From Escherichia phage Nernie: 64,000 nucleotides of DNA. Shown here piece by piece: positions 13,205-14,099 of the stretch. The notes beneath the pieces are model-generated. The model had not been told where the DNA came from and ran no database searches. It saw only the letters and a list, made by a program, of their open reading frames with translations. The translations under genes were made by a program, and so were the position numbers. The stretch lies in sequence record PP925835.1. One strand, written 5' to 3'. Numbering within the stretch: position 1 is the stretch's first letter; each line of letters begins with the position of its first letter.

Positions 13205-13574
13205 AATATTTTTAAAAGATAATAACCGCTACTACAACCCAAAATGGAACGGCTAGAATGATAGCGTTAATCGTTCCAACCGTCAAGCTGTTTTCTTTCT
13301 TGATCATCGTTATCAACCTTTTATAAGTAATGTTATTGTGACGGTGGATTATGGAGATCCTCACCTTTGCCCGTCCTACATTGCGCCCTCCTTTTGTTTA
13401 TTGTCGTTGTGCCTCGCCCCCCTCGACAAGATGAATAATACGCTACCAGGTGAGGAACGTCAACCATTTTTTTAATCTTTTTTTCATTTCTTTTTTGCTT
13501 GCTATCTATAAAGGAAACGGCTATTATCTTTCTACCGCGCCAACCAGGGCGCACATCAAAGAAAGGGCGATACC

Positions 13575-13841
13575 ATGACAAATACTCCTTTACATCTCAT
13601 GCACTCATTGGGCTGGCAAGGCGGCACGGTGCACCAGGTAGCAAGCGCAACGGGCTTAAAGGTTGAAACCGTTCTCAACCTGGGCGATCATAAGGTGGAA
13701 GAAATAGATCATTTTGATACGTTCGCAAATGGTTATCTATGGGCTTGCAGTGGCGGCGGGGAAAGCAAGATCCCGCCAGGGGCGCGGGGCGACATGTATT
13801 TTTGGTTAGGTGTCCTTTCCTGGCAAGAAAACAAAAAATAA
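13575..13841 (+). CDS. hypothetical small protein in GC-rich island
   Basis: 88-aa plus-strand ORF in a locally GC-richer segment; weak ribosome-binding site; may be spurious. Confidence 0.3.
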   Translation: MTNTPLHLMHSLGWQGGTVHQVASATGLKVETVLNLGDHKVEEIDHFDTFANGYLWACSGGGESKIPPGARGDMYFWLGVLSWQENKK

Positions 13842-13843
13842 TC

Positions 13844-13872
13844 TTGACAAGCCCAGGGATCGGGCTTATACT
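13844..13872 (+). promoter_or_regulatory. sigma70-like promoter
   Basis: TTGACA, 17-nt spacer, TATACT on the plus strand; no convincing ORF downstream. Confidence 0.45.
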
Positions 13873-14099
13873 GTTTTACATACAGAAGAGGAAGCGCCAC
13901 CCCCACGGCGTAAAGGCGGGGCTAACATACCAGGGGGCACTGGTTGGAAGGTTGATCGCCGGTAGCTCGTCTAAAATAAATTTGTAAAGAAATGTAAAGA
14001 TAAAAATAATCGCTTGCTTTTGTTGTTGGTTATGCTATTCTTATTGTATGGCGAGGGGATACGGGAGCGCGAGACAAACACCACCCCTGCGCGTTATTC

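Follow-up and report, generated by a model that had tools for sequence, protein, structure and literature searches.

Stand-alone small RNAs with their own promoter and terminator are known from phage lambda (OOP RNA) and phage T4 (the stable species 1 and species 2 RNAs, which have no assigned role). The element described here, termed RNA-A, lies in Escherichia phage Nernie, in a 64,000-nucleotide (nt) stretch of sequence record PP925835.1 that is called the window below and to which coordinates refer unless a locus is named. RNA-A is located at about 13879-13965 on the plus strand, has a folded core of ~87 nt that possibly extends into an adjoining A/U-rich spacer, and is very probably a structured small RNA gene. 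Like OOP RNA, it is short, apparently independently transcribed and non-coding, lies in the early region and is oriented against the neighbouring genes, and like the T4 species it is of the stable, structured type without an assigned role. It differs from these RNAs in having a covarying pseudoknot and an 18-nt near-invariant segment, neither of which is needed by a simple antisense RNA, as well as in lying outside any tRNA cluster and in lacking similarity to any Rfam family.

A second point of comparison is found in the same phage lineage. Phage phiTE encodes the ToxI and pseudo-ToxI antitoxin RNAs of a toxin-antitoxin system belonging to type III (PMC3475682), which are pseudoknotted non-coding RNAs and a precedent for RNA-based counter-defence. 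RNA-A is carried by phiTE too (locus L276), but it is a single unit instead of 36-nt tandem repeats and has no adjacent toxin gene, and no ToxI-like sequence was found near RNA-A in phiTE.

No description of RNA-A was found in the literature on these phage groups or on its sequence motif. The genome paper of phage rV5 displays an unexplained 'non-coding' box (PMC3606486), and the bulk IMG/VR survey of Fremin, Bhatt and Kyrpides (2023) reports 10,006 anonymous candidate structured RNAs (PMC10690425), which share with RNA-A the data source and the reliance on covariation within intergenic regions of phages. They may include RNA-A; what the survey singles out in its text are tRNA-like RNAs, terminators and the leaders of GP20 and GP32, and not RNA-A. 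The Rfam covariance-model search that had been proposed in the initial annotation of the window gave no match in the whole window (Rfam 15, gathering thresholds), and ARAGORN found no tRNA or tmRNA there.

Fold and covariation of RNA-A

The elements of the RNA-A transcription unit, all on the plus strand, are as follows.

13844-13872, plus strand: RNA-A promoter (promoter P1), TTGACA (13844-13849), 17-nt spacer and TATACT (13867-13872), an 11/12 match to consensus
13879-13894, plus strand: predicted 5' end, placed from the position of the -10 element, and single-stranded purine-rich leader (ACAUACAGAAGAGGAAG)
13895-13910, plus strand: hairpin P1, CGCC (13895-13898) with GGCG (13907-13910), loop ACCCCCAC; 94.9% of cells paired
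13901-13921, plus strand: H-type pseudoknot supported by covariation, loop C-run (13901-13904) with GGGG (13918-13921)
13922-13952, plus strand: hairpin P2, CAUACCAG (13926-13933) with CUGGUUG (13940-13946), closed by CU (13922-13923) with AG (13949-13950); 97.1% paired
13948-13965, plus strand: near-invariant 18-nt 3' segment AAGGUUGAUCGCCGGUAG, from the comparison of relatives
13966-14004, plus strand: A/U-rich spacer in which TGTAAAGA occurs twice, lacking a terminator in this phage, from a sequence scan

The fold was assessed by covariation, counted on 40 distinct sequences aligned to a covariance model. Hairpin P1 undergoes compensatory changes at two pairs, CGCC/GGCG being replaced by GGAC/GUCU or AGAC/GUCU in Aeromonas phages. 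The two strands of the pseudoknot are joined by an A-rich linker (UAAAGGC, 13911-13917), the AA of which is invariant across members. Two of the pseudoknot pairs are C-G throughout; at the third, 28 sequences have C-G and 9 have A-U, and the fourth is A-U, U-A, G-C or U-G in six sequences, yielding the forms CCCC/GGGG, CCAA/UUGG, CCAU/AUGG and CCAG/CUGG. Hairpin P2 shows compensatory changes at five of its seven pairs, and its apical part varies in length, with GAAA, UUCG or GCAA tetraloops in some members. Outer pairs between GC (13916-13917) and GU (13951-13952), across the bulged pseudoknot strand, are plausible but unproven, and vary on one side only (G-U in 26 sequences, A-U in 14). In two Aeromonas phages, the linker accommodates a ~50-nt insertion of small hairpins.

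Over the whole structure, standard pairs occupy 92.7% of cells, compared with 83.9% in column shuffles, and changes on both sides are seen at 9 pairs in 49 cells, values reached by 0 of 500 shuffles. When the partners are shifted by one to three columns as a control, pairing falls to 26-49%. The initial annotation had noted a potential for pairing in the G/C-rich stretch behind the promoter. Single-sequence folding of 13872-14005 lends this no support, being no more stable than shuffles on either strand (z = -0.60 and -0.47), and the structure is thus not demonstrable from the window sequence alone; it is the covariation across relatives that substantiates it.

Members, conserved tail and transcription

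RNA-A is shared by large virulent phages that infect enterobacteria and Aeromonas, namely those of the Stephanstirmvirinae, the Vequintavirinae and the genus Plateaulakevirus, and is present in phages only. A sensitive BLAST search with 13500-14010 matched 234 phage records, of which ~100 distant ones align only to query positions 376-501 (window 13875-14000), at 72-85% identity; in these, the flanking DNA no longer aligns and the matched stretch is almost never annotated. The distant records are Vequintavirinae, among them Klebsiella and Proteus Mydovirus, Cronobacter CR3 and CR8, Salmonella PVP-SE1, Escherichia 4MG, Pectobacterium phages and Erwinia Hena1. An exact-pattern scan with the most conserved 18-mer added members from IMG/VR and metagenomes, some of them Aeromonas phages of the genus Plateaulakevirus. 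The same scan of 185,579 bacterial and archaeal genomes returned chance matches in GC-rich organisms and one phage contig binned into a metagenome-assembled genome, and 5,426 E. coli genomes contained nothing similar to the patch of DNA around RNA-A. When IMG/VR was scanned with a loose, gapped pattern, the matches listed were chance hits only, and 100 of these loci, searched with the covariance model, gave no match. Covariance model R1, built from 34 sequences, finds one match per phage, with true members scoring 61-124 bits and chance matches at most 18.6 bits, and its single match in the window is at 13867-13981 on the plus strand.

An alignment of five of the distant relatives contains contiguous invariant blocks and also indels whose lengths are not multiples of three, a pattern that fits RNA and not protein. 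Indels of 1, 2, 4, 6 and 8 nt fall inside 13930-13940, in addition to the ~50-nt insertion in the two Aeromonas phages; the reading frame is not kept, which excludes protein coding by RNA-A. The absence of an obvious open reading frame (ORF) downstream of the promoter, remarked on in the initial annotation, is borne out in that no plus-strand ORF survives comparison, as relatives carry indels of 1, 2, 4 and 8 nt.

The near-invariant 3' segment follows the family consensus AAGGU-N-(G/A)AUCGC(C/U)GG(U/G/C)A(G/C), with the prevailing form AAGGU-N-GAUCGCCGGUAG, and is identical save for position 6 in all BLAST-derived relatives. Because most members were retrieved by the tail pattern itself, this invariance is partly built into the search, and a separate scan was therefore anchored on the 5' half only. 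It yielded 9 further members with single tail substitutions (GGAUC to GAAUC, GGUAG to GGGAG or GGCAG, and one CGCC to CGCU). The tail is very highly conserved, not absolutely so. No covarying partner for it was found in the aligned members.

Several further readings were considered and rejected. The pairing of the hairpin P1 3' strand with the tail (CGGCG/CGCCG) proposed by RNAalifold has no covariation behind it and does not hold in the Aeromonas members, in which hairpin P1, by contrast, is compensated. A four-codon mini-ORF (GUG GAU CGC CGG UAG) has lost its start in the window (GUU) and its stop in variants (GGGAG, GGCAG). Likenesses seen by eye to an anti-Shine-Dalgarno sequence, a boxA/nut-like element, a CsrA site, a T-box and the 5S loop E are not kept across members.

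The tail is the site of an insertion in one phage. In a Mydovirus-like contig (locus L278), a gene for a 197-amino acid (aa) HNH homing endonuclease (phrog_953, E = 7.6e-79) lies exactly within the conserved tail of RNA-A (6286-7141 of the locus, on its minus strand). Behind it come a new promoter and a further RNA-A copy, which is divergent, belongs to another sequence class (51 bits) and leads back into the usual downstream sequence. The targets of homing endonucleases are typically sequences with little freedom to change; these enzymes exploit conserved sequences rather than create them, and the arrangement fits a conserved gene worth replacing.

The promoter reported in the initial annotation (TTGACA-17-TATACT, 13844-13872) is present, and is the highest-scoring sigma70-like site within 13000-14700. 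Of 50 true members, 48 have a match of 9/12 or more, with the -10 element ending 41-48 nt upstream of a GGCU landmark; among random 85-nt segments taken from the same loci as controls, only 7.8% score as high. The suggestion of a small RNA gene is accordingly strengthened, the ~110 nt behind the promoter being a covariation-supported structured RNA with the promoter at a fixed distance in ~50 distinct relatives. The promoter spacer contains a GC hairpin (13849-13867) followed by a T-rich run, a terminator-like match, and from its sequence looks like a terminator of the upstream gene that doubles as part of the RNA-A promoter; the spacers of relatives are likewise GC-rich and self-complementary. 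The leader is purine- or A-rich in all members and is not conserved in sequence.

At the other end, the A/U-rich spacer after RNA-A leads in Aeromonas phages into a plus-strand intrinsic terminator, read from the sequence as GCCAGC-UUGUUAG-GCUGGC+U (locus L117, phage 2L372D) and GCCCG-CACAAGA-CGGGC+U (locus L007). In Plateaulakevirus, the promoter, RNA-A, A/U-rich spacer and intrinsic terminator stand alone in a 300-bp gap between minus-strand genes. No terminator was found after RNA-A in the window or in Vequintavirinae, leaving the 3' end in the window uncertain. With regard to a possible Hfq-type base-pairing small RNA, the promoter is conserved, a terminator is seen in Plateaulakevirus only, and the conserved segment without a covarying partner would be a candidate seed.

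RNA-A is assigned to the plus strand on account of the promoters, the terminators and the one-sided G-U/A-U outer pair. The element could instead act as DNA or from the minus strand, as a site for a protein or homing endonuclease or as a leftward terminator or processing site, with the plus-strand RNA being incidental. On the minus strand, hairpin P1 is indeed followed by a pyrimidine/U-rich run and was flagged as terminator-like (13910-13895 and 13904-13888), the helices are strand-symmetric with balanced wobble evidence, and the homing-endonuclease gene of L278 lies within the conserved segment. Such an explanation nevertheless appears highly improbable, given that 48 of 50 members keep a near-consensus plus-strand promoter at a constant distance and that the Aeromonas phages have plus-strand terminators. 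The covariation between hairpin loop and downstream strand is accounted for neither by a DNA site nor by a terminator stem of 4 bp, and the endonuclease would be exploiting a conserved sequence, as outlined above.

A further possibility is that RNA-A is a ligand-binding aptamer or self-cleaving ribozyme, which would act through its own processing or by way of read-through or antisense transcription reaching the convergent early genes. Its pattern of conservation is like that of riboswitches and small ribozymes, combining covarying variable helices, an invariant junction and tail, an H-type pseudoknot with an invariant AA, and tetraloop-capped hairpins. The compact hairpin-loop pseudoknot, with linker adenosines that could lie in the stem groove, recalls the preQ1-I, SAM-II and fluoride riboswitches, and the order of elements (a 5' hairpin with its loop pairing downstream, an A-rich linker, a short helix strand, the pseudoknot strand, a variable capped hairpin and a conserved return strand with GU) resembles that of the pistol ribozyme (RF02679). 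In Aeromonas phages, moreover, the terminator lies within ~45 nt of RNA-A, with a minus-strand gene just beyond. The resemblance is incomplete in each case. The RNA-A pseudoknot has 3-4 bp compared with 6 in the pistol ribozyme, the candidate closing helix (the equivalent of pistol P2) is only 2 bp with one-sided variation, and RNA-A has an extra 13-nt conserved tail; the pistol Rfam model gives no match at E <= 10 in three divergent members.

More generally, Rfam searches at E <= 10 of the window and two divergent members, the Aeromonas phage locus L117 and Erwinia Hena1 (L006), gave unrelated weak matches, inconsistent between members and including no riboswitch or ribozyme. Unlike riboswitch aptamers, RNA-A has a second hairpin and a long tail, and lacks a regulated downstream gene and a consistent expression platform. 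What follows it is another promoter in the window, and a terminator and convergent gene in Aeromonas phages; there is no same-strand downstream gene, no terminator in the window or in Vequintavirinae, and a possible anti-terminator pairing seen by eye in L117 is not kept in L007. An aptamer or ribozyme of this kind is therefore considered unlikely.

The GC-rich patch and its neighbourhood

The window phage is a phAPEC8-like (Stephanstirmvirinae) coliphage, and 13200-14300 is 96-98.5% identical to Stephanstirmvirinae Escherichia phages (alia, EmilieFrey, JohannJBalmer, VEcB and others). In phage alia, all flanking genes are on the minus strand, and the sole annotated feature in the interval corresponding to 13330-13990 is one plus-strand 'hypothetical protein', with two 'repeat_region' features just past it. 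This interval had drawn attention in the initial annotation as a locally GC-rich island, an impression upheld by sliding-window composition. The G+C (GC) content is 48.0% at 13330-13990 and 60.4% at 13880-13970, compared with 37.8% in the 64-kb window. The richest 400 nt of the 64 kb are 13541-13940 (0.518 compared with a mean of 0.378), and the global maxima for 300-nt and 660-nt windows (the latter starting at 13311) also fall at the patch. GC skew is negative throughout the neighbourhood and positive on the plus strand only at 13400-14199 (+0.19 at 13600-13999), which fits a plus-strand transcription unit among minus-strand genes. The best explanation of the island is a small plus-strand transcription unit within minus-strand early genes, consisting of a gene for an 88-aa protein and then the independently promoted RNA-A.

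The alternative raised at the outset, horizontal acquisition, here taken as a recent gain of the fragment from the host or another bacterium, and with it a chance fluctuation of composition, has in its favour that the GC content is far above the phage background and that phages differ in the ORF that occupies the slot upstream of RNA-A. Both origins are scarcely credible in view of the genome scans described above, which revealed no similarity in E. coli and no real bacterial copy, the inheritance of the element across three phage lineages, and a composition explained by GC-rich RNA helices and one GC-rich gene. The features of this gene and its upstream flank are listed here.

13575-13841, plus strand: gene for an 88-aa conserved phage protein, from a phrog_19316 match and homologues
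13499-13527, plus strand: weak candidate promoter for the 88-aa ORF, TTGCTA-17-TATTAT, proposed from a consensus scan (9/12)
13435-13463, minus strand: sigma70-like promoter TTGACG-17-TATTAT, directed leftward to the minus-strand genes, from a consensus scan of this sequence only (10/12)

The 88-aa ORF had been recognized in the initial annotation at its correct position, but its description as weak was mistaken, as it is a real, conserved phage protein gene. The protein matches phrog_19316 along its full length (E = 1.5e-58) and has 21 homologues with identity down to ~48%, with strong conservation of the N-terminal 35 residues, a variable middle part and a conserved C-terminal motif FWLGVL. 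Structure prediction gives a confident five-helix model, for which no known fold relative was found. The GC content of the ORF (49.4%) matches that of the island as a whole (49.7% for 13500-13990). The slot that it occupies contains the phrog_19316 protein in the window, in phiTE and in loci L010 and L017; PVP-SE1, Mydo and L020 have an ORF of an unrelated kind (DUF7170) there, and no ORF is present in CR3, Hena1 and the Aeromonas phages. Given these differing contents, the 88-aa gene is not tied to RNA-A. The leftward promoter forms the left edge of a divergent control region that includes a C-run (13410-13428) pointed out in the initial annotation.

Downstream of RNA-A, the window and every locus of the Vequintavirinae and Stephanstirmvirinae have a conserved non-coding hub, in which the two TGTAAAGA motifs precede a second promoter, a block termed RNA-B, Fur-box-like palindromes and AT-rich repeat arrays. 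Its features in the window are as follows.

~14013-14040, plus strand: second sigma70-like promoter, TTGCTT...TATTCT, kept in CR3, PVP-SE1, Mydo, 4MG and Hena1
~14048-14100: conserved block RNA-B, AUGGCGAGGGG...GCGCGAGACAAACACC...CUGCGCGUUAUUC, kept in the same five phages
14106-14213: five Fur-box-like 7-1-7 palindromes, TGAKAAT-N-ATTMTCA, with further sites at 1787, 1982, 2841 and 2899
14235-14439: three 63-nt direct repeats with spacings of 75 and 67 nt, in a stretch of 26-30% GC

The palindrome occurs 12 times in the window at up to two mismatches, compared with 2.1 expected, and 0 of 100 shuffles reach 12. The palindromes directly follow RNA-B in all Vequintavirinae loci (the phage 4MG version is TGATAATGATTATCA), where loci have 1-5 of them, and in several Vequintavirinae a further promoter comes next. 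They resemble the E. coli Fur box, and may serve as sites for host Fur or as operators for a regulator of the phage itself. At the site equivalent to the direct repeats, Vequintavirinae and Plateaulakevirus have arrays of 65-85-bp repeats with AAAAATTTTTT and (C)GATCGAGA(A/C)CC. These iteron-like repeats may mark an origin, packaging or regulatory site. The first hairpin of RNA-B seems by eye to covary (GCG/CGC, CAG/CUG, CGGG/CCCG); RNAalifold on a MAFFT alignment predicts no consensus structure for this block.

Aeromonas phage 2L372D contains the same hub (L117, ~5560-6000), with a promoter, an RNA-B-related 3' block, two palindromes (5715-5763) and GATCGAGACC repeats, located 2 kb from RNA-A. 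This distance, together with the terminator that RNA-A has of its own in that phage, indicates that RNA-A is an independent module. It bears on the proposal that RNA-A is instead a cis-acting part of the hub, either a primer or activator transcript for a replication origin or a leader carrying transcription on into the array of operators and iterons. In origins activated by transcription, such as T4 oriF and oriG, promoters point into an AT-rich region, and the promoters here likewise all face the AT-rich repeats (27% GC), in an order of RNA-A and hub that is fixed in the window and in all Vequintavirinae and Stephanstirmvirinae loci. Set against this are the 2-kb separation and the stop of RNA-A at its own terminator in Plateaulakevirus, the insertion of ~300 nt between RNA-A and the hub in locus L081, and the consideration that a primer would not need a covarying pseudoknot, all of which make a cis role in the hub rather improbable. 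These phages have no mapped origin, and a skew analysis of rV5 was inconclusive (PMC3606486).

Two side observations may be added. The window has a second ORF-poor region of ~1.4 kb (1484-2910) with the same palindromes and many short AT-rich repeats, in which a promoter-like site (TTGACA at ~2165) precedes CACATAGCGCC and a hairpin GCGCCCCCTGGAGGGTGGCGC, with a start resembling that of RNA-B. A link to a tRNA cluster through record OY757067.1 (Klebsiella phage K23PH08C2; locus L285, 3341-7464), in which the annotation places a dozen tRNAs and 'HNH endonuclease' pseudogenes, was rejected. ARAGORN finds no tRNA in this locus, the sequence has the usual layout of ORF, RNA-A, RNA-B and repeats, and the feature coordinates of the record appear mis-registered.

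Proposed function and significance

We consider it reasonably probable that RNA-A represents a new family of early, independently transcribed, pseudoknotted small RNAs, most likely acting in trans on a conserved partner. The absence of a downstream plus-strand gene excludes a classical cis-regulatory role, and it is from the features described above that we infer action in trans. In the proposed mechanism, host RNA polymerase would make RNA-A early in infection from its sigma70 promoter, the pseudoknotted core would be a stable platform or a surface for recognition, and contact with a partner, itself conserved across Enterobacterales and Aeromonas or across these phages, would be made by the conserved 3' segment. 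A protein seems a more likely partner than an RNA, because no complementary target was found among the E. coli rRNAs, the three tRNAs and the window sequence searched.

Several observations weigh against this interpretation. Much of the covariation separates few lineages, and the independent events are fewer than the cell counts suggest. In the three well-supported helices, wobble is neutral as to strand, with 3 G-U cells favouring the plus strand and 3 A-C cells the minus strand. The expression, ends and timing of RNA-A are deduced from sequence, and transcripts from promoter P1 in the window, where there is no terminator, may run on through the next promoter. Pairing of the tail with E. coli 16S, 23S and 5S rRNA and tRNA-Ile, -Ala and -Asp reaches -24.9 kcal/mol at best, weaker than the shuffled mean of -27.0, and the best non-self pairing with both strands of the window is -25.7, within the null range of -22 to -29 (its own antisense excepted).

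It is conceivable, at a clearly lower probability than that given to the trans-acting family, that RNA-A belongs to a new functional class, such as a novel fold that cleaves itself or binds a ligand, or a decoy for a conserved host factor or defence system, which it would neutralise.

Besides tRNAs, virulent phages are known for few well-supported structured RNAs, and RNA-A is short, has clear covariation, and includes an 18-nt segment kept across phages whose proteins have diverged beyond DNA alignment. Its carriers are widely used in therapy and in defence-system screens, and include phAPEC8-like and PVP-SE1-like phages, Klebsiella Mydovirus and BASEL phages. In nearly all GenBank records, the region is unannotated or bears a spurious small 'hypothetical protein', and an RNA-A model would improve annotation. 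Because model phages and therapeutic phages able to grow on E. coli K-12 carry it, RNA-A is directly testable. The degree of conservation suggests an interaction with something near-constant across Escherichia, Klebsiella, Salmonella, Erwinia, Proteus and Aeromonas, and identification of this partner could bring to light a new point at which phages take over the cell or counter its defences.

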